DNA of 64,000 nucleotides from an uncultured Methanoregulaceae archaeon (GCA_963737635.1 CAVTTL010000001.1:44999-108998); one strand, 5' to 3'; counted from the first letter of the stretch, positions 24,708 to 34,823 are shown. A program made the numbers and translations. The notes: generated by a model not told the origin, from the sequence alone.

Positions 24708-26128
24708 ATGACTCGGTATTCACCCTTTTTATCGTATTTTCTGTTCCTGTTCCTTGCATCAGTTGTACTATGGTGCCATCCGGTTTCTGCGGTCGAATTA
24801 CCGGTCGCAGATTTTTCAATCACACCGGTATCAGGCACCGTACCACTGGATGTAACGATGACCGATATATCAAAAGGACCCCATGCAGCGTGGTTCTGGA
24901 CGTTTGGCGACGGCGCATTTTCCTCCAGCCAAGAACCGGGACATACCTATACAGAACCTGGTTCCTATACCGTTAGTCTGTTCATTACCGATAATCAGGG
25001 ACATACCAGTGTCAAAAAAAGATATGTTACGGTCGGATCCTGGTGGTGGACACATCTGGGGAGCGTAGTATCGAACCTCTTTCTCAAACCCGCCCCACCT
25101 CTGGCACCTGTTGAACCAGCTGATAACGGGCTTTTTCACGGCCATTTTGAAGATCTGCCATCTATAAATGAGATGCCGGTCTCCCCGCTCATGCAACGTT
25201 TCCTCACTGACGGATATACGGTCACCTTTAAACAATCAGGACTGCCAACGGGTTTGAACTGGTCGGTTGTCCTTGTTAACAACAACGGAACCCGGCTGGA
25301 GAGAACGTCATCTGCACCTGAAATCCGTTTTTCAGATATTCATGGATCGTATACCTATGCAATACCGCTGGTGAAATTTGGGAAAAGACAGGTAAATATT
25401 TCTGCAATACCGTCTTCGGGCCCGGTTGACAGAGATAGTATTGATATTCAATTCTCTCATTTCGAGCCTTCCTGGGCGGGATATATAATGGCAGCAAATG
25501 TGACCGATCCCGGCCGGTTGTGACATCGGTAGCAGGATCATGGATTGTTCCGGAACTTTCGGGTACTACTGCAGATATGACGTCGGCATTTCAATGGATA
25601 GGAATCGGGGGATTTTTTCCGGGAGATGCCAGTAACCTGATCCAGACAGGAACTGCATCCAGTCTCGGCGGAATGTATCCTATGCAATATAATTATGGCT
25701 GGATCGAACTTCTCCCGGGTCGTTCCGAACCGATCCCACCGGATTTCGTTATTTTTCCGGGTGATACCATGCAGGCAAAGATACAGACAGAAAAGCCGGG
25801 GAGATGGAATATAACCCTGAGAGACCTCACGCAAAACTGGCAATACGAGAGAACCTTTCTTTACCATTCCTCTATGGATAGCGCAGAATGGGTACTGGAA
25901 AACCCCTCTTATGCAGGAGAAACGTATGATCTTGCCACGTTCGGGGTTGCGAATTTCGGAACACCATCGTCAGATGATGATAATGCGACCATTGATGCAG
26001 TGACCGGCCCACTGGGTACATTCCCTGGTTTCTCAATAACGATGGTATACAACAATACTTCACGGGCAATGCCATCACCATTATCGTCTGAAGGCAATTT
26101 CACTATCAAGGGATATAGTGCGAATTAA
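24708..26128 (+). CDS. Secreted PKD-domain protein with C-terminal family G1 (eqolisin-type) glutamic peptidase domain (apparent frameshift at ~25511)
   Basis: Signal peptide and PKD (WFWTFGDG), then SWAGY, WIVP, QWIGIGG, LIQTGT, WIELLP and SAEWVLENP. One added base at CCGG fuses the two ORFs (TDPRPVVTSVAGSW). Confidence 0.75.
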
Positions 26129-26321
26129 TGGTTAAAGGGTTCTGGTGCATCTTCGAGACTCGTTACCTACCGGGCCCGCTTCGATATCGACAACGTCATT
26201 TTCTTTGCGTCACGACACCGCACCGGAACCTAAGGAAAATATCGTACGAAAGAAGGTCACCCGGGGGAATGTTCCTGCACCGGTTCCGGATGTAGTGCGG
26301 CAGACAATTCTTTCAGTGCCC

Positions 26322-26412
26322 CCGGGGGTTCATGTACCGGGCAATCCGGGTGAGATCCCCCTTTCCTGCCGCATCCCAACCCTCGTACAGGATGATGAGC
26401 GGGATCTTGCGT
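26322..26412 (-). repeat. Diverged ~90-bp copy of part of the ppk2/pap gene (27876-27969)
   Basis: Translates to RKIPLIILYEGWDAAGKGDLTRIARYMNPRG* versus RKIPLIILYEGWDAAGKGGNITRIARYMNPRSY in pap; same orientation. Confidence 0.85.
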
Positions 26413-26551
26413 CGATCCGCTGGGTATTACATTGCCTCTGGTGACAGCGGTGTCATCGCGGGCGGCCGCCCGAATAACCGCGATGCTTACGAGACCCAGA
26501 AAAGTAAATGTGTATGTTGTTGCCGGTTTCACCTGCGAACGGGAAAAAGGA

Positions 26552-27365: not shown

Positions 27366-28904
27366 TCACTCCAGCAGTTTCCGGCAATACGATGTAACCT
27401 CTTCGATTGTCTGTACCCGGGCTGCCCATTTATCATCGGATCCGATCACCGTCCACGGAGCGATCTTCGTATTGGTCCGGGCCAGCATCTCATCGACCGC
27501 TTCATCATACTGTTGCCATTTTTCCCGGTTTCTCCAGTCGTCTTCAGTGATCTTCCACTGCTTGAGCGGGTCGCTCTTGCGCTGGTTAAAGCGCTTGAGC
27601 TGCTCCTCTTTGCTGATCTCAAGCCAGAATTTTATAATCCCCCCGCCGTTTGAATAGATGAAATCCGCTTCCGTATCGTTGATCTCGCGGTATGCCCGCT
27701 GCCACTCATACGCTGTGCAATAACCCTCCACCCGTTCCACGAGGACACGGCCATACCAGCTCCGGTCAAAGATCGTAATGTGGCCGGCCTTTGGGAAATT
27801 CTCAATGAACCGCCAGAAATAATGGTGGCTTTGTTCCGTTGCGTCAGGAGCAGAGACCGGGATCACATCATAACTCCGGGGGTTCATGTACCGGGCAATC
27901 CGGGTGATATTGCCTCCCTTTCCTGCCGCGTCCCAGCCTTCGTACAGGATAATGAGCGGGATCTTACGCTTGAAAAGGAGTGACTGAAGCCGCAGCATCT
28001 CTCCCTCGAGACAGTCAAGGATCGGCATGCAGTCCTTTTTTACACAGGGAATATCCTGTGGCCGGTTCACGGTTCTCCTCTTCACCGGACGTTTTTTCGG
28101 GAGGAGGGGATCGCCGGATTTTATCATTTTTCCGAGAGCCAAAACATCCAGTGTTTTCTCCAGGGTCTTAACCAGTGTCGAATAAATCTCCAAGATCGCA
28201 TGGTTCTCATTGGTCGCGTCGATCACGTGCCATGGTCCGGATGGCGTGTCCGTCTTTTCAAGAAGGTTATCGATCACCGGGAACGAAAGATCGTACGCGT
28301 TATGCAGACCCCAGAGAGCAGGAGTCACGAGCCATGCGCTCAGGGGATCGTTTTCCCGGGCTTCAAAGCGCTGTTTCTGCTCATCCTTGTCGATATGCAG
28401 GAAGAACTTCAGGATGATCGTCCCGTCATCGGCCAGCTGGCGCTCGAAGTTGTTGATCGAGATGATCCTCCCGTCTAAGGATTTTGTCCAGCTGGTTCTC
28501 TGCATCTCAGCAGAGATAGCACGGCTGTACCAGCTCCGGGCAAAGAGCGCGATACGCCCTTTGGCCGGGATCCGGGTCCAGAACCGCCACATAAAGGGCC
28601 GGACTCTTTCTTCATCTGTAGGCTGCTCGATCGTGTGGAGAGTGAACCCTCGGGGATCAAGTGCCTGGATCACCATTTTGGTCGAGCGGGTGATCCCTGC
28701 TGCGTCCCACCCCTCCATTACGATGATGACCGGTATCCGGGCTTCACGCAGGGATCGCTGAAGGATACCAAGGGTTTCCTCAAGCGGGGCGATCTTTTTG
28801 ACAAACGTCTTTTTGTCGATTCGGTTCTGCGGATTGAGGACATTTTTCAGCATCGTGGGGGACTCCAGGCTCGGGGATTTGGACTTTTTCATGTCTCTAT
28901 TCAT
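27366..28904 (-). CDS. pap: Polyphosphate:AMP phosphotransferase (two-domain PPK2)
   Basis: Tandem PPK2 domains: N-domain EGWDAAGITRS (degenerate Walker A) with RSWY; C-domain EGWDAAGKGG, FDRSWYGRVLVERV, WKITEDDWRNR. Confidence 0.92.
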   Translation of the reverse strand: MNRDMKKSKSPSLESPTMLKNVLNPQNRIDKKTFVKKIAPLEETLGILQRSLREARIPVIIVMEGWDAAGITRSTKMVIQALDPRGFTLHTIEQPTDEERVRPFMWRFWTRIPAKGRIALFARSWYSRAISAEMQRTSWTKSLDGRIISINNFERQLADDGTIILKFFLHIDKDEQKQRFEARENDPLSAWLVTPALWGLHNAYDLSFPVIDNLLEKTDTPSGPWHVIDATNENHAILEIYSTLVKTLEKTLDVLALGKMIKSGDPLLPKKRPVKRRTVNRPQDIPCVKKDCMPILDCLEGEMLRLQSLLFKRKIPLIILYEGWDAAGKGGNITRIARYMNPRSYDVIPVSAPDATEQSHHYFWRFIENFPKAGHITIFDRSWYGRVLVERVEGYCTAYEWQRAYREINDTEADFIYSNGGGIIKFWLEISKEEQLKRFNQRKSDPLKQWKITEDDWRNREKWQQYDEAVDEMLARTNTKIAPWTVIGSDDKWAARVQTIEEVTSYCRKLLE

Positions 28905-29117
28905 TTGCCGGGGGATAAAAATATTGAAACCCTATATTCAACAATACCGGTCAGGATCGAGAAATAGAATCGGGAAAATCTGGATTTAACTAGGGTATGA
29001 TATACCATTATTGAGATTTCAGGATACACCAGAGGAAATGCCACAAGGACAAGAGAAAGAACATAAGGAAGGACAGGAGAATTACAGGTAGTAATAGAAC
29101 GAGAGGAGGATTTTTGT

Positions 29118-29613
29118 ATGGATCTCTATATTCTCCGCCATGGGAAGGCAGGACAATCGTTCAATCGTCCCGGGGATAGTGACCGGAAAGCTTACCTCTG
29201 AGGGCAGGAGCGAGATGCGAAAGGTCGCGCGATGGATACGATCAAAAAAAATCCGGTTCGAAGTTATTGCCACAAGCCCCCTCACCCGCGCCCACGAAAC
29301 AGCGGAGATTGTTGCCCGGGCGCTCAAACAGAAAGACCGGCTTGAAGTCTGGGACGAACTTTCACCTGGTGGCGATCCCGATACGATATTCTCTCATGCC
29401 GCGCAGTATGACAAGAATGCTGCCGTGATCCTTATCGGGCATGAACCCGTATTGTCCGGTCTTATCGGGAGAATCATCACCGGCGGAGACAGCGCCTCCA
29501 TTAGCCTCGCCAAAGGCGGCATGGCAAAGATCCGGGACTATAGTTTTAACAGCACGCCGTCCGGTGATCTCCAGTGGTTGCTGACGCCCCGACAGATGGC
29601 GGAGATGCAATAA
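29118..29613 (+). CDS. sixA: SixA-family phosphohistidine phosphatase (apparent +1 frameshift at ~29188)
   Basis: ATG 29118 gives MDLYILRHGKA (RHG motif, missed by the ORF track). Removing one A in CCGGAAAGCTT joins it to KLTSEG...TSPLTRAHETA...LIGHEP. Confidence 0.9.
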
Positions 29614-29634
29614 AAGATACCGGTTTTTCCTTAT

Positions 29635-31239
29635 TTACTGACCCTTTTTATATCCCCACCCGCGCAGCTGATCGATAAGTTCCACGGGTTTTTTGGTCAC
29701 CGTATTAATACGCCCTGCATAAACCCGGCCGCTCGGGCCGTCAAGGGTGATATAATCACTTTCATACAGGTCCCCGGCCGGAAAAGGTGCACATCCGGCG
29801 GGTAAGATCGATTTTGAGGTCTTCACAGCTGACGATGCAGACTTTGCCCATCTGCCGCGCCACAACAGCTGCGTGGGACGTCCGTGCCCCCCGGATGGTG
29901 AGGATACCGGCAGAGGCAGCGATGCCACTAATGTCATCCGGGGTCGCTGTTTCCCGGACCAGGATAACCGGTGAGGTTTTGGCAAGCTCGACCGCACGTT
30001 CGCTCGTAAAAGCGATCTTTCCCGAGGCGACGCCGAGAGATGCAGAAATCCCGGTCGCGAGAGGACTTTCTGTGGTCTCGAGGGTCTGGATGGTAATAGC
30101 ATCGATATCGATATTTTTGATCCGGTCGAGTGCCTCGTCTTTTCCAATGATATTCTCCCGGACAAGGTCGACGGCAATATGCAGGGCCGCAAGAGGGGCC
30201 CGTTTCCCGGACCTGCTCTGGAGGATGAAGAGTTTTCCTTCCTGAACCGTGAACTCGATGTCCTGCATGTCCCGGTACAGGTATTCAAGCCTTGTTGCCG
30301 CATAGGACAATTCTCGGGCTGCAAGGGGGATCCGTCCCGAAAACACATGGTGTGATACCACGCCCATCAGGCCAGAGACTATATCTTCGCCTTGTGCCCC
30401 AAACCTGAAATCGACGAGAAGTTCGTTTGAACCGGTCCATGGGTTCCGGGAGAAAGCAACGCCGGCCCCGGAAAGGGTACCAAGGTTCCCAAAGACCATC
30501 GCCTGCACCGTCACGCCGGTACCGCGTACACCGGGGCCGGGATTCATATTCCGGAAGGTTACGGCACGGGGGCTGTTCCATGACTGCAGGATTGCGGTCG
30601 TGGCCAGTTCGAGCTGCACAAAGACATCTTCAGGCAACCGTCTTCCGTTTGTCCGCGGGTACAGCTTTCGTACTCCTCTGCAATTGACCGAAGGGCTGAG
30701 AAATCGAGTGCGGCTTCTTCGGTGAGCCGTTCTTTTTCCATACTCTCCTGCACAATCTTCCGGTACTGGCCGGGGTCATGGGAAAAAACCACGGTGCCAA
30801 AATTTTCAAGGAACCGCCGGTACGAGTCCCAGGCAAATTTCGGGTTCCCCGTCTGTGCTATGAGCCCCCGCAGCGTATCCCGGTTCAGCCCGATATCGAG
30901 GATTGTCTCCATCGCACCGGGCATACTCGCCGGTGCCCCGGATCGTACCGAAACAAGGAGAGGCCGCCGGCCAGCACCGTAGAGCTGCCCGGTAGACCGC
31001 TCGATAAAAGCAAGCCCCTGGCGGAGAATCTCAGGCACATCGTCGGGGAGTACCTGGCCGTTCCGGTAATATTCCTCGCAGATATCGACGGAAAGGGCAA
31101 ACCCCGGGGGGACCGGGATGCCTTGTGCAGACATCTGGGTAAGAACAGAGGCTTTGTTCCCAAAATCCCCGGAGGTCACCTCATTCCTTACTTCAGGCCC
31201 AAAGAATACGATCCGGGGGGTTTTATCGGTCATAGGCAA
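29635..31239 (-). CDS. Short PPDK-like protein: ATP-grasp plus phosphohistidine swivel domain, no pyruvate/PEP domain (apparent frameshifts at ~30664 and ~29774)
   Basis: GNKASVL..IPVPPGF, PLLVSVRSGAPASMPGAMETIL, GEDIVSG, DIEFTVQEGKLFILQSR, GARTSHAAVVARQMG, ITLDGPSGRVYAG. About 530 codons, then a stop and the convergent sixA gene. Confidence 0.85.
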
Positions 31240-31248
31240 AAATCATCC

Positions 31249-33195
31249 CTAACGGTTCATGCTCTCAATCATGTTATCCCGGACAAGGAACGAGACTTTG
31301 AGGAGGGTGTTGGAAGCTTCCTCCAGCGTCCGGGCAATTTCCAGGTATAACTGGAATTCCTTAAAGTCGGTACATTGCTGGAAAATGATCCGGGCTGTCC
31401 TTCGTAAGGATTCATCGCACAGTCGTTCAATCGAGAAGACTTCATCAACAGCGGTCAGGAGATCTTTCATGTCCTCGCGCTGGCTGGTGCGGTGAAATTC
31501 CTCTGCGGCCATGAGGATCTTCAGGTACCCCCGGCATCCTTTCAGGTCGAGCTCGGCAAGGTTCCTGAGCTCGAAGAGGATATCTTTTGAGTCACCCTGC
31601 TCCGGAACAAGAGTAATAAAAAAACCGGCTTCTTCGAGATAATCCGCAATATCATCCGCGGTCGCGATAAGGGAGATGAAAAAGCCGGGGTTCTGGATCC
31701 TCTGGGAAAGGTTTCTCATCCGGTTGACGAGATCGTCTGCCTTGTGCTCCCATTCCTTTGCCCGGGCGGCATTCCGGGTTACCGCTGCAAGATCGCGCTG
31801 GTCGGATACCGCCCACAAGGATTCCAGGACAATCGACGCGATCTCGATCGAGAACGAGGCATGTTCCTGGCAGAGGTCCAGCATCCCTTCGTGCGCGGAC
31901 CGGAAATACCGGAGTAGTTCGGCGCGGATCTCGTTCTGGAGCAGGAACCGGGACGTGTTTGCAAGAAGTCCTTTTGATGCGGTCCGGAGCACGAACAGGA
32001 GATATTCCATGGTCTGCTCCTTCCCGAGGATTTCGTGCAGCGGCTCACCGTACTGAAGGGGAATGCTCGAGGCCAGTTCAAGCGCTTCATAGATAAGCCG
32101 TTCGCCTCCCAGTTCAAGGAAGGCAATGTGCCCGATCTCTTCATTGGCTGCCCGGGAGAGCACTTCAATGGCGTCTGCATTGGGGACGAAATTGCGCAGC
32201 CTCTTGCGTGCCCGGTTCCAGTCGATCAAAAAAACGACCCGTGAGCCGGTGTGCGCGAGAAAATCCTGTGCATCTTTTTCATCGTGGGCATGGTAGGTGC
32301 CGATAGAGAGGTGAAAGACCGGAACCTCGAATTTCTTCCCGGGCGTCCGGGAGATGGTGTCGCTCCATTGTACCGGGAACGGATGAAAGAGATCCTGGAA
32401 AAAGTGGAGCCGGGGGAGGTGGATATCGGTATAGGTAATGGTAATCGTCAGGTCCCTGACTTTTACCACGAGAACATGTGCATCGGTCAGGCCGATATCG
32501 TTCTGAATAATCAGCTCATCCCCGGACCGGGTCGCAATCGTCCCGAGACCCGGGTGACCGAATTTCAGAGGAGCGGTCCGGTTGACCCCGGACATAAAGG
32601 CCCGGACCATCCCGCGATCCGGATCGGTCAGGAGATAACAGAGGGCACCATCGATATCCTCGTTCGAGATCTGTGTCTGAAGGGCATTTACCGCTTTATG
32701 GAGATCCATGACCAGCAGGTGGATACTATCTGCACCGGAATCCTTGTCACCCCGTGTAATGGTATCGATGAGATCCCCGGTTATTGGCCCGTCCCCGGGT
32801 GAGGCGAGGGATGTCCGGAGACTGGCGAACCGATCCCCAAACGGTTTCGCTTCTGCGGGATCCTGCGATGCAAGCGGGGTTATCATTTCCTCTACTGCGG
32901 TCGCCAGCTCAGAAAAGATCCGGCTTATCAGGGGAATCGCATACCCGTTTTTATCCATCCGGGTCGCACCACCGACAACCGTGTCAAGATCGGGATCCGG
33001 TATCCCGACCGATTCGCGCTCGGCCCGGAGATTTGAGTGGTTCTGGCCGGGATCATCCGCATGGTTCCGGGCTGCCTGGATGAGCGTGAAATAATATTTG
33101 ATCCGGTCGTTTGCCCTCAGGGCGGCATTGACAAGAGCAGGGAGAAGAAGTTTCTCTTCCCCGAGTTCTTCGAGGATCTCGTATTTTTCGACCAT
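31249..33195 (-). CDS. DUF47/PhoU-like phosphate transport regulator fused to a ~400-aa N-terminal domain of unknown function
   Basis: C-terminal EWEHKADD, DDIADYLEEA and IERLCDE motifs of DUF47. Its stop lies 9 nt before the PPDK-like start. Confidence 0.75.
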   Translation of the reverse strand: MVEKYEILEELGEEKLLLPALVNAALRANDRIKYYFTLIQAARNHADDPGQNHSNLRAERESVGIPDPDLDTVVGGATRMDKNGYAIPLISRIFSELATAVEEMITPLASQDPAEAKPFGDRFASLRTSLASPGDGPITGDLIDTITRGDKDSGADSIHLLVMDLHKAVNALQTQISNEDIDGALCYLLTDPDRGMVRAFMSGVNRTAPLKFGHPGLGTIATRSGDELIIQNDIGLTDAHVLVVKVRDLTITITYTDIHLPRLHFFQDLFHPFPVQWSDTISRTPGKKFEVPVFHLSIGTYHAHDEKDAQDFLAHTGSRVVFLIDWNRARKRLRNFVPNADAIEVLSRAANEEIGHIAFLELGGERLIYEALELASSIPLQYGEPLHEILGKEQTMEYLLFVLRTASKGLLANTSRFLLQNEIRAELLRYFRSAHEGMLDLCQEHASFSIEIASIVLESLWAVSDQRDLAAVTRNAARAKEWEHKADDLVNRMRNLSQRIQNPGFFISLIATADDIADYLEEAGFFITLVPEQGDSKDILFELRNLAELDLKGCRGYLKILMAAEEFHRTSQREDMKDLLTAVDEVFSIERLCDESLRRTARIIFQQCTDFKEFQLYLEIARTLEEASNTLLKVSFLVRDNMIESMNR

Positions 33196-33346
33196 TATTC
33201 CACATCACATTATATCAGGAAATTTTATTCCTACAAGCGAGATAACGGAACCTTATACCCTTATGACCCAAAAAGAGTTTCGATGATGCAGTCCTGGTAC
33301 CGGAATAAAACAGGATGTGCCAGTACAAACCAAAACGCCCGTTGAG

Positions 33347-34699
33347 TTATGCACCGCGCTTGATCCGTTCGCGTTCCCGGGCTATCTGGACATGACCAGG
33401 GTTGATCGCAAGAACCTGGTCGTACGCCGCGATCGCTTCGGTATCCCGTTGTGTTTTTTTCAGGATGAATCCCTTATAGATCCAAGCGTCAACAGAAGCC
33501 GCGTCAAGCGCGATTGCCTTGTTGCACGAGGTTAGTGCCTCTTCATATTCCTCGAGCATGACCAGGGTCTTTGCCCGATTGATCCAGACACCGATGTTTG
33601 CCGGATCGAGTTCGAGGGATCGATCATAGGCGGACAGCGATTCATCATAGAGCCCGGCTTTTTTCCGTACATCCCCAAGAGCCCGCCACGCATCCGGATT
33701 GCCGGGGTTTGTCTCTGCATAGCGTTCAAACATCGCCGCTGCATCCTTAAATTTCCCTGTTTTGCTATAGAGATTGCCAAGAATATACCAACGGTCCGGG
33801 ACGGGAACCTTTTCCGGGTGCCGGTCTATTTCTACGATGAGTTCTTCATAGGTACTGCACCGGGGCGCGGCAGATGCCGGGACCGGTTCGGAAGCGGGTT
33901 GTTCCTTTTCCGGGAATATTCCCGGTGGCACGGAGACTTCGGGGGGGTCGCTTTGGACCGGCCTGACTGGGATGGCCCTCTCAATAATAATCCGGGCGAC
34001 CTGTTCAGCACCGACGTGCCCCTTCTGGTTTTTGACGGAATCCTGTTTCAGTGCTGGCAATTCCGGGGCTGTTCTGATGAGAGAAGAGGGTGTATCGGCT
34101 ACAGGAAGCGGCTGTACGATCGGCCCGGGGGGGGTCCGACCGGATTTTTCCGGGAGATGTTCTTTTGGATGTTTTAGGAGAGAGGGTTCCGGGCGGCCGG
34201 TCTCCTTAGTCTTTTTTCGGGCAACACTGATTCCTATTAACGCATCCATGTGCCGTGGATCGAGGCTCAGGACCTGTTCGTACGCGAGAATAGACGCGTC
34301 ATATTTTTCCTGAATTGCAAGGGTCAGTCCTTTTGCATACCAAGCTTGTACAAAAGTCGGGTGTATCGCAAGGGCGCGGTCGTAGAGGTCAAGCGCAAGG
34401 GAATGCTTACCAAGATTGGAATAGATAAGACCTTTATAAACAAGGGCGTCAGGAAGATCGGGATCAATTCCGAGCGCCCGGTCAAAATATTGCAGCGCTT
34501 CCTCAAAGGATCCCAGCTGGTACAGGGCATAGCCCTTGAGCTGGGAGGCACGTGCACGGCCCGGTTCAGCAGCCTGAACTTTTTCAAGGAGATCGATGGC
34601 ATCGGCATAATATCCCTGTCGACACAGGACTTCTCCCCTGTCGAAGAGTGAATCCGGATCCGCTGCCGTATTTTTCAGGAGTTTTTCCATGATGCCCAT
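33347..34699 (-). CDS. TPR repeat protein with central Pro-rich linker
   Basis: Repeated TPR consensus (KGYALYQLGSFEEALQYFDRAL, AWYAKGLTL, VWINRAKTL). Confidence 0.85.
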   Translation of the reverse strand: MGIMEKLLKNTAADPDSLFDRGEVLCRQGYYADAIDLLEKVQAAEPGRARASQLKGYALYQLGSFEEALQYFDRALGIDPDLPDALVYKGLIYSNLGKHSLALDLYDRALAIHPTFVQAWYAKGLTLAIQEKYDASILAYEQVLSLDPRHMDALIGISVARKKTKETGRPEPSLLKHPKEHLPEKSGRTPPGPIVQPLPVADTPSSLIRTAPELPALKQDSVKNQKGHVGAEQVARIIIERAIPVRPVQSDPPEVSVPPGIFPEKEQPASEPVPASAAPRCSTYEELIVEIDRHPEKVPVPDRWYILGNLYSKTGKFKDAAAMFERYAETNPGNPDAWRALGDVRKKAGLYDESLSAYDRSLELDPANIGVWINRAKTLVMLEEYEEALTSCNKAIALDAASVDAWIYKGFILKKTQRDTEAIAAYDQVLAINPGHVQIARERERIKRGA

Positions 34700-34781
34700 T
34701 TACTGAAACCCCGGATCGTTTTCGGTTCACATAGATTTTTCTTTTGGATAAAGGAAAACGCGACAATATATAGATTAACAT

Positions 34782-34823
34782 ATCAGAAATATATATTTTT
34801 CAATCAGAAATTTATATACTTCA
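34782..34823 (+). repeat. Two tandem 21-bp units (18/21 identical); the second reads as BRE plus TATA
   Basis: ATCAGAAATATATATTTTTCA / ATCAGAAATTTATATACTTCA. Confidence 0.7.

Follow-up and report, generated by a model that had tools for sequence, protein, structure and literature searches.

The DNA considered here, a window of 64,000 nucleotides (nt) from an uncultured Methanoregulaceae archaeon (GCA_963737635.1, CAVTTL010000001.1:44999-108998), contains between positions 27,366 and 33,195 a cluster of four genes, two of which appear to constitute a unit that is conserved across prokaryotes. Judged from gene order, this unit is a predicted operon (33195 to 29635, minus strand) of two genes and not of four. 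Gene 1 encodes a protein of 648 amino acids (aa) ending in a DUF47/PhoU-like domain, and gene 2 encodes a 534-aa "headless" pyruvate phosphate dikinase (PPDK) that stops before the pyruvate/phosphoenolpyruvate (PEP) barrel. With a probability of about 0.5-0.6, we read the pair as a split dikinase or phosphohistidine-transfer unit serving the homeostasis of inorganic phosphate (Pi) and polyphosphate (polyP).

The family of the 648-aa protein was used to scan one representative genome per species for 185,579 species, and at least 498 matches were confirmed, from both prokaryotic domains. Eighty loci from this survey and four from exact look-ups were retrieved, giving 84 loci in all, of which 82 were non-redundant and were used for the neighbour counts below. 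In 83 of the 84 loci gene 1 was followed at once by a short PPDK gene of like orientation, the single exception being a contig that ends 55 bases past gene 1, and the reverse look-up from the PPDK side returned the same partner. The median gap between the two genes was 2 nt, and 4-nt overlaps were frequent. The archaeal carriers belong to the Methanomicrobiales, Methanosarcinales, Methanoperedens, Methanomassiliicoccales and Thaumarchaeota (Nitrososphaerales and Nitrosopumilales), and the bacterial carriers to the Beta- and Gammaproteobacteria (Accumulibacter, Thiobacillus, Azonexaceae), Geobacteraceae, Planctomycetota, Gemmatimonadales and Dormiibacterota.

When the full library was searched with the N-terminal domain of the 648-aa protein, 1048 cluster representatives were obtained, nearly all of about 640-660 aa. 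Two clusters, with 6 and 4 members from independent sources including a Solirubrobacteraceae genome, consisted of single-chain fusions of 1200-1205 aa that carry the N-terminal domain, DUF47, PPDK_N and PEP-utilizers; a linker of about 45 aa joins the partner (residues 1-641) to the short PPDK behind it (residues about 687-1190). One such natural fusion is MGO8905770.1 (P0391). Taken as a whole, the strict adjacency, the translational coupling and the natural fusions indicate that the two products act as one unit, which is highly probable. The original prediction, made from the window alone, had proposed that the short PPDK is co-transcribed behind a DUF47 fusion; the gene spacing and the fusions speak for such co-transcription, and in a survey of the kind it called for, the two genes were found together across prokaryotes.

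Gene 1 is an intact open reading frame (ORF) in the window (31249..33195, minus strand). Its stop codon lies 15 nt ahead of the ATG of gene 2 (29635..31239, minus strand), with the Shine-Dalgarno-like AGGGATGAT in between. The nearest relatives are found in Methanoregula and other Methanoregulaceae genomes, at 81-82% protein identity.

The 534-aa protein contains the Pfam domains PPDK_N and PEP-utilizers, the latter with a match of 64 bits. Its alignment to the PPDK model TIGR01828 was limited to profile positions 16-515 of 865 and scored 523.7 bits against a cut-off of 843.45, and the short "PPDK" model NF004531 (PRK05878) was matched with 422.5 bits (E = 2.4e-126), below its cut-off of 456, which places the protein, as far as profiles can tell, in a related but distinct lineage. 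Against the solved PPDK structures (9pzl/1kbl) it aligned to residues 19-516 (E = 3e-117), covering the whole of the ATP-grasp and swivelling His domains, and its C-terminus coincides with the point at which a PPDK continues into the PEP/pyruvate barrel. The catalytic-His motif RGARTSHAAVVAR, with the codon of His456 at 29873..29875 (minus strand), was located by this alignment and matches GGMTSHAAVVAR of the solved enzyme. Among 59 family members the ATP-grasp residues K29, R99, E329, Q341 and R343 were conserved, as were T454 and H456, with the catalytic His present in at least 97%; one proline and one tryptophan were conserved in the short C-terminal tail. By these alignments the headless PPDK is a real and intact family in which every catalytic residue of the PPDK nucleotide site is kept together with the phospho-His. 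The product of gene 2 is nevertheless not a PPDK, as the defining PEP/pyruvate domain is absent. Nor is there room for that domain in gene 2, since sixA converges on it with 21 base pairs (bp) between the two stop codons. In both respects, the truncation of a roughly 530-aa PPDK homologue after the TSH His and the lack of space behind it, the earlier description of the gene agrees with the profile and structure-based alignments. No PEP-utilizers_C gene was detected in the annotated flanks of six loci (L001, L003, L004, L085, L086 and L087), nor among the ten largest ORFs around the window cluster (19.6-41.6 kb).

In the window sequence as given, the PPDK homologue is spread over three overlapping ORFs. 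ORFs 1 and 3 are in one frame and the middle ORF is shifted, so the two shifts compensate each other. Homology predicted that an A is missing in GAAAG near 30665 and that a G is surplus in CGGGGAC near 29772. The window was compared with independently assembled Logan contigs from the public soil-metagenome runs X1-X5, and over 28086-34800 the contigs were identical to it except at three sites (30665, 29772 and 29187), all of them homopolymers. An extra T (TTT to TTTT) was found after position 30665 in runs X1, X2 and X3, and one base fewer (CCCC to CCC) at position 29772 in runs X2, X3 and X5; at each of these two positions the remaining run was without a contig. At position 29187, within sixA, the window has AAA and the reads have AA, one base fewer in four of four runs. 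With the three read-supported edits a single 534-aa PPDK ORF was obtained, identical to the homology-guided repair; many intact proteins of 528-535 aa share 76-79% identity with it over 99% of its length. The sixA ORF as listed in the window (29140-29613, plus strand) is without its catalytic RHG motif, which is encoded further upstream in a different frame; the edit at 29187 restores the motif in a 164-aa SixA that begins MDLYILRHGKA at the true start, 29118. Both PPDK frameshifts and the third one in sixA are thus homopolymer errors of the window, and the gene is intact in the population. The suspicion voiced beforehand that the PPDK frameshifts are artefacts was well founded, the exact corrections being present in three runs per site.

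Since three disruptions in a 6-kb stretch all proved to be assembly errors, other broken ORFs in the window may be errors too, and given such homopolymer indels its apparent pseudogenes are untrustworthy unless checked. The homologue of the 648-aa gene was also found split into two frames or ORFs in four long-read metagenome genomes (L035, L047, L050 and L053); these splits are of the same indel-error kind.

The 648-aa protein has more than 4000 homologues, the best being 82% identical (Methanoregula), and an exact-sequence look-up of the window protein returned no identical record. Its sole family match was PhoU_div/DUF47 (PF01865) over residues 468-635, at 21.7 bits against a cut-off of 24.4; other members of the family scored above this cut-off (P0284, 26.4; P0288, 34.7; P0299, 27.0). 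In the AF2 model (mean pLDDT 84), the last approximately 215 residues matched the DUF47/PhoU-like structures 3l39, 2olt and 2iiu by Foldseek with a probability of 1.0 and target TM scores of 0.80-0.85. The C-terminal part (residues about 431-648; 31249..31905, minus strand) is accordingly modelled as a six-helix bundle of PhoU-like fold. The N-terminal 430 residues (31906..33195, minus strand) had no match to any Pfam or NCBIfam family, searches of PDB sequences with the 648-aa protein and with an N-domain profile gave chance matches only (E >= 0.1), and a Foldseek search with a separate model of the N-terminal domain returned nothing below E = 0.05. A YbjN-like sub-domain, the best Foldseek hit (E = 0.05, TM 0.42), was judged uninformative. 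The division of the protein into an N-terminal domain of no recognised family followed by DUF47, as first described, stands on both counts.

To assess conservation, 58 members from archaea and bacteria, with 40-82% identity, were aligned. Fifty-five positions were invariant, the majority of them in the N-terminal domain, and these included seven histidines (H159, H166, H214, H240, H259, H356 and H445), of which the first six are in that domain. The other invariant residues of the N-terminal domain were D156, D233, D257, D325, N232, N327, R262, R330 and K331, and the PhoU-like part contained the invariant acidic motifs D487, D514/D518/E521 and E590/D594/R598. The invariant residues of the N-terminal domain look like an active or metal site, which makes this domain a candidate second reaction site or phosphoryl acceptor. 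H240, the last residue of QNDIGLTDAH (residues 231-240; codon verified at 32476..32478, minus strand), had been put forward speculatively as a phospho-acceptor; it is invariant, and so are the six other histidines. On this pattern a catalytic role for the N-terminal domain seems at least as likely as a signalling one. A fragment of the domain (query residues 18-289) was also seen joined to a phosphate-selective porin O/P domain in a 700-aa protein on a single JGI contig (P0386); this protein could be an artefact of assembly or gene calling, or it could point to a further phosphate neighbour.

Neighbour families were defined by unbiased clustering of all flanking ORFs and identified with Pfam, and the presence of genes was counted by tblastn; simple ORF calling gave antisense shadow ORFs in high-GC loci. 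The only function-specific families that recur across phyla beside the pair were phosphate genes. At least one Pi/polyP gene was present within 10 kb of the pair in 20 of the 82 loci, with PPX in 10, CHAD in 9, PhoU in 5, PstC/A in 5, SixA in 5, PstS in 4, thymidylate-kinase-like PPK3 candidates in 4 and PPK1 in 3. Several of these genes immediately precede the pair on the same strand, some of them within one operon with it, as in the orders PPK1-CHAD-phosphoesterase-pair of Methanoperedens (L038), TMK-like-CHAD-PPX-pair of a Geobacteraceae and a Dongiaceae genome (L051, L052) and PPX-pair of Thiobacillus denitrificans (L069) and an unclassified proteobacterial genome (L062). In Methanosarcinaceae (L033, L037), PstS immediately precedes the pair on the same strand and CYTH-CHAD comes after it. 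The pair adjoins a pst/phoU cluster in Accumulibacter (L075), in a closely related Methanoregula (L087) and in L085. The phosphate theme recognised in the window is in this way repeated across phyla, with PPX, CHAD, PPK1, Pst and PhoU as neighbours.

The two remaining genes of the window cluster behave differently. SixA adjoins the pair in only three Methanoregulaceae loci (L001, L005, L006), in both orientations, and lies several kb off, inside ppx clusters, in three further loci. None of the 82 other non-redundant loci, the closest relatives at 81-82% identity included, had PPK2/PAP at a distance of up to 10 kb from the pair, and no Pit gene was among the recurrent neighbours in the flanking-ORF clustering. 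Of the gene associations proposed earlier for a survey, that with CHAD recurred and those with ppk2 and pit did not. A study of archaeal PPK3 published in 2026 gives, in its main text, SixA, PPX, CHAD and PstS/PstC as the usual neighbours of PPK1 and PPK2 and describes a ppx-sixA-PPK3-CHAD operon in Sulfolobus (PMC12995831). As SixA beside PPK is a published and generic arrangement, the sixA-pap genes of the window form an ordinary polyP cluster, and SixA need not be the eraser of the phospho-His on the headless PPDK. The module often adjoins polyP clusters, and SixA and PAP of the window are not dedicated parts of it.

Several further features were noted in the flanks. Thaumarchaeal gene sets (L040:1-3275 and L068:822-5132), 5-8 kb from the pair, contain a tandem pair of thymidylate-kinase-like genes together with PPX and SixA, the last in one or two copies, in the layout of the published PPK3 polyP operon. 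Downstream of the pair on the same strand, L051:8810-13094 and L052:7693-11888 carry APH/PHP, a CBS-SpoIIE (PP2C) phosphatase, an HATPase_c_2 kinase and STAS, a partner-switching regulatory set, and then PhoU and PstB. Several archaeal loci (L032:9284-9646, L035:9449-9796, L047:13591-13944, L086:5622-5969, L087:2328-2675 and L088:1296-1643) have near the pair a small DUF498 protein, for which a connection with phosphate is not obvious. A Pho-box scan upstream of 36 bacterial loci was overall no better than background. In five Thiobacillus-like loci (L054, L056, L061, L064 and L069), the homologue of the 648-aa gene is preceded, at a distance of about 40-50 nt, by the conserved element TGTCAYAAAnnTTTAATGnGATAGCCGTATCTT. 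Only the first half of this element is similar to a Pho-box half-site, and we regard the element as a weak lead.

A mechanism for the pair may be depicted as follows: The headless PPDK would charge its own His456 from ATP, with AMP being released and the gamma-phosphate passing to Pi to form pyrophosphate (PPi). Such autophosphorylation of the 534-aa protein is predicted from its retained catalytic residues. The swivelling His domain would then dock on the 430-aa N-terminal domain of the partner, which may replace the missing pyruvate/PEP barrel as the second reaction site. In the third step, the weakest of the three, an inorganic phosphate species would receive the phosphoryl group or, in the opposite direction, donate it; our best guess for this species is a polyP chain end, or Pi, which the PhoU-like bundle would hold together with metal ions. 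The outcome would be a coupling of the ATP/AMP and Pi/PPi pools to polyP. It is likely that His456 hands its phosphoryl group on to the partner or to a ligand of the partner, and a role of the pair in Pi/polyP metabolism is somewhat more probable than the opposite; that the acceptor is an inorganic phosphorus species, as this catalytic version would have it, is put forward tentatively, with the odds leaning against it. Between catalysis and signalling by the partner, we prefer catalysis by a narrow margin. In its most specific form, the pair would be a reversible phosphohistidine dikinase that links ATP/AMP (and Pi/PPi) to polyP or pyrophosphate, for example by the reaction polyP(n) + AMP + PPi <-> polyP(n-1) + ATP + Pi, with a new catalytic domain guided by a PhoU-like metal-phosphate module; this form is rather improbable.

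The reading as a split dikinase or phosphohistidine-transfer unit draws its support from the intactness of the gene in the population, the TSH and ATP-grasp residues, the nearly universal pairing with its short gene gaps, the fusions, the invariant residues of the N-terminal domain, the PhoU-like fold and the loci with phosphate genes, and it has precedents in VadK, an autophosphorylating truncated PPDK, and HpeHI, a two-component dikinase. Several points weigh against it. The chemistry of the pair is predicted from genes, alignments and modelled structure, and the N-terminal domain is without a recognisable catalytic fold, the "second active site" being proposed from conservation. To our knowledge, PhoU/DUF47 domains occur only as regulatory or accessory proteins. 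About three quarters of the loci had no phosphate gene within the flanks available, and the density of Pi/polyP genes, 56 in 1.04 Mb of flank, is roughly ten-fold over a typical genome-wide rate that is itself a general-knowledge estimate. The module also co-occurs with PPK1, PPK2 or PPK3-like genes and replaces none of them. The description of VadK as a regulatory kinase favours a signalling role instead, in which the headless PPDK phosphorylates a residue of the partner, e.g. H240, the PhoU-like domain regulates Pst/Pit or polyP enzymes, and SixA-type phosphatases may reset the system. As originally proposed, the module would then be a Pi sensor that stands in for PhoR/PhoB. Such a role would fit the confirmed fold of the partner, as PhoU-type domains are known regulators, and also the invariance of H240, the adjacent SixA in three Methanoregulaceae loci and the continuation of the L051/L052 operon into the SpoIIE-CBS phosphatase, HATPase_c_2 kinase and STAS genes. 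We consider it possible and less probable than a split dikinase, since 55 invariant residues kept across two domains of life, mostly in the N-terminal domain, exceed what a simple acceptor needs, SixA, which is generic to polyP clusters, is in most loci not beside the pair, output domains of any kind, DNA-binding and membrane ones included, are absent, and the recurrent neighbours include no Pit gene.

Other alternatives fare worse. In PPDK, rifampin phosphotransferase and HpeHI alike, the phosphate goes to an organic substrate bound at a third site, and some such enzymes have two components; the pair might likewise be an organic small-molecule dikinase of the HpeHI, rifampin phosphotransferase or phenylphosphate synthase type, with the partner binding the substrate and the phosphate neighbours being incidental. 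This is unlikely, as the sole function-specific neighbours that recur across phyla are Pi/polyP genes, no catabolic or biosynthetic cluster accompanies the pair, and the partner has a PhoU-like domain. The original prediction had gone further than signalling by the pair and envisaged a dedicated, co-evolved four-gene circuit, with the headless PPDK as writer, SixA as eraser, PAP as AMP recycler and the DUF47 fusion as effector. The four genes are indeed contiguous in the window and all come from phosphoryl-transfer or polyP families, but the complete absence of PPK2 near the pair elsewhere, even in the closest relatives, the rarity of an adjacent SixA and the fact that SixA beside PPK genes is the usual polyP neighbourhood have largely refuted the circuit in the locus survey; SixA need not be the eraser, and the circuit as a whole is now very improbable. 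Least probable of all is that ppdK is a pseudogene in decay, or that a separate pyruvate/PEP-domain gene supplies the rest of a split canonical PPDK. The two frameshifts in the window sequence as given would suggest decay, but both are absent from the independent assemblies of the same population and there are hundreds of intact orthologues of 525-540 aa; the corrected population contigs and the intact relatives of 528-535 aa led us to reject the pseudogene. A split PPDK is contradicted by the lack of a PEP-utilizers_C gene in the flanks examined (the annotated flanks of the six loci and the ten largest ORFs at 19.6-41.6 kb of the window) and by the universal partner being the DUF47 fusion, which is at times joined to the PPDK in one chain.

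The rest of the window cluster lies on the far side of gene 2. The sixA gene (29118..29613, plus strand, after correction) belongs to the phosphohistidine phosphatase family TIGR00249 with 79.1 bits against a cut-off of 74.5. The divergent pap (27366..28904, minus strand) lies 213 bp away from it, and the adjacent and divergent arrangement reported for the two genes was confirmed; the A/T-rich intergenic region (28905..29117) is, from direct reading of the sequence, presumed to contain a shared promoter. The 512-aa product of pap is a two-domain PPK2, with two tandem PPK2 stretches in Pfam and 572 bits for TIGR03708 against a cut-off of 547.65, and is by these family criteria a polyphosphate:AMP phosphotransferase, its substrate being predicted. 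Both genes are neighbours outside the conserved module. A 34-aa fragment at 26316-26414 (minus strand), 82% identical to residues 312-345 of the neighbouring PPK2, looks like the remnant of a duplicated PPK2 domain. Candidate indels at 27910-27915 in pap were rejected, the contig end in question belonging to this paralogous 99-nt fragment. At the 3' end of pap (27400-27459), nine clustered substitutions were seen in runs X2 and X4, with X1 and X3 identical to the window, and they probably reflect a second strain or haplotype in the population. The genes flanking the four-gene cluster are unrelated and encode TPR, PKD, peptidase A4 and PAS proteins. Among them, a PKD-domain ORF and a Peptidase_A4 ORF (24708-26128, plus strand) overlap by 4 nt in different frames; they might be two genes that are coupled, or a single gene that a further indel error has split.

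It was not until 2026, with VadK, that truncated PPDKs were recognised to work as phosphohistidine kinases, and then only in Actinobacteria (PMC13400623). The matches, at least 498 of them among the species representatives, indicate a far wider lineage of truncated PPDKs, and one that travels with a dedicated partner, composed of a conserved domain without family assignment and a PhoU-like domain, repeatedly in polyP or phosphate-uptake clusters. The biology of PhoU/DUF47 in this way gains a concrete and testable biochemical partner, and methanogens, ammonia-oxidising archaea and wastewater phosphate-accumulating bacteria gain a candidate component of polyP metabolism. If the pair were indeed a reversible dikinase, PPK1, PPK2 and PPK3 would be joined by a fourth mechanism that connects nucleotides with polyP, and its carriers would include methanogens, ammonia-oxidising archaea and bacteria that accumulate polyphosphate, for instance Accumulibacter. 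A literature search for the pair of DUF47 fusion and short PPDK, also in combination with polyphosphate, CHAD and PhoU, found no description of it.

Compared with known systems, the arrangement of sixA and pap in the window, and of PPX, CHAD, PPK1, TMK-like and Pst genes beside the module elsewhere, corresponds to the polyP clusters described in the main text of the PPK3 study, whose lists of neighbours there do not name the pair (PMC12995831). The PhoU/DUF47 proteins ("Pit accessory protein"; 3l39, 2olt, 2iiu) share with residues about 431-648 of the partner the six-helix fold and the conserved acidic motifs. They differ in being stand-alone proteins of about 210 aa, whereas the domain is here fused to 430 aa of no recognised family and coupled to a kinase, with pit genes missing among the recurrent neighbours of the pair.

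The closest characterised relative of the headless PPDK is the mycobacterial VadK (Rv1127c) of M. tuberculosis, a truncated PPDK described in 2026 as a non-canonical histidine kinase, for which ATP- and Mg-dependent autophosphorylation on the PPDK catalytic His was demonstrated experimentally and whose genome has no pyruvate-domain gene (PMC13400623). The two proteins have the two-domain truncation and the retained catalytic His in common. VadK has been reported only from Actinobacteria, where it is found beside methylcitrate-cycle genes and interacts with those enzymes, and its description mentions no DUF47/PhoU partner (PMC13400623), whereas the headless PPDK sits by the DUF47 fusion and polyP genes.

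The two-component dikinase HpeHI (PMC12167813) and rifampin phosphotransferase (PMC4844700) show that an ATP-grasp domain and a swivelling His domain can feed a third site other than that of PPDK, and that the parts can sit on separate polypeptides. HpeHI is split between the ATP-grasp and swivel domains, whereas in the pair these two remain together and the third module alone is separate; that module is unrelated and includes a PhoU-like domain. PPDK itself (1kbl/9pzl) has the ATP-grasp and swivel domains in common with the headless protein, in which the equivalents of K22, R92, E323, Q335 and R337 and the TSH His are kept. The headless protein differs from it in lacking the PEP/pyruvate TIM-barrel, as it stops at the end of the second linker, and in having an obligatory separate partner of unrelated fold. 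Placed among these systems, the pair is probably a phosphoryl-transfer machine not described before, a dikinase or histidine kinase of the PEP-utilising family that is equipped with a new third module.

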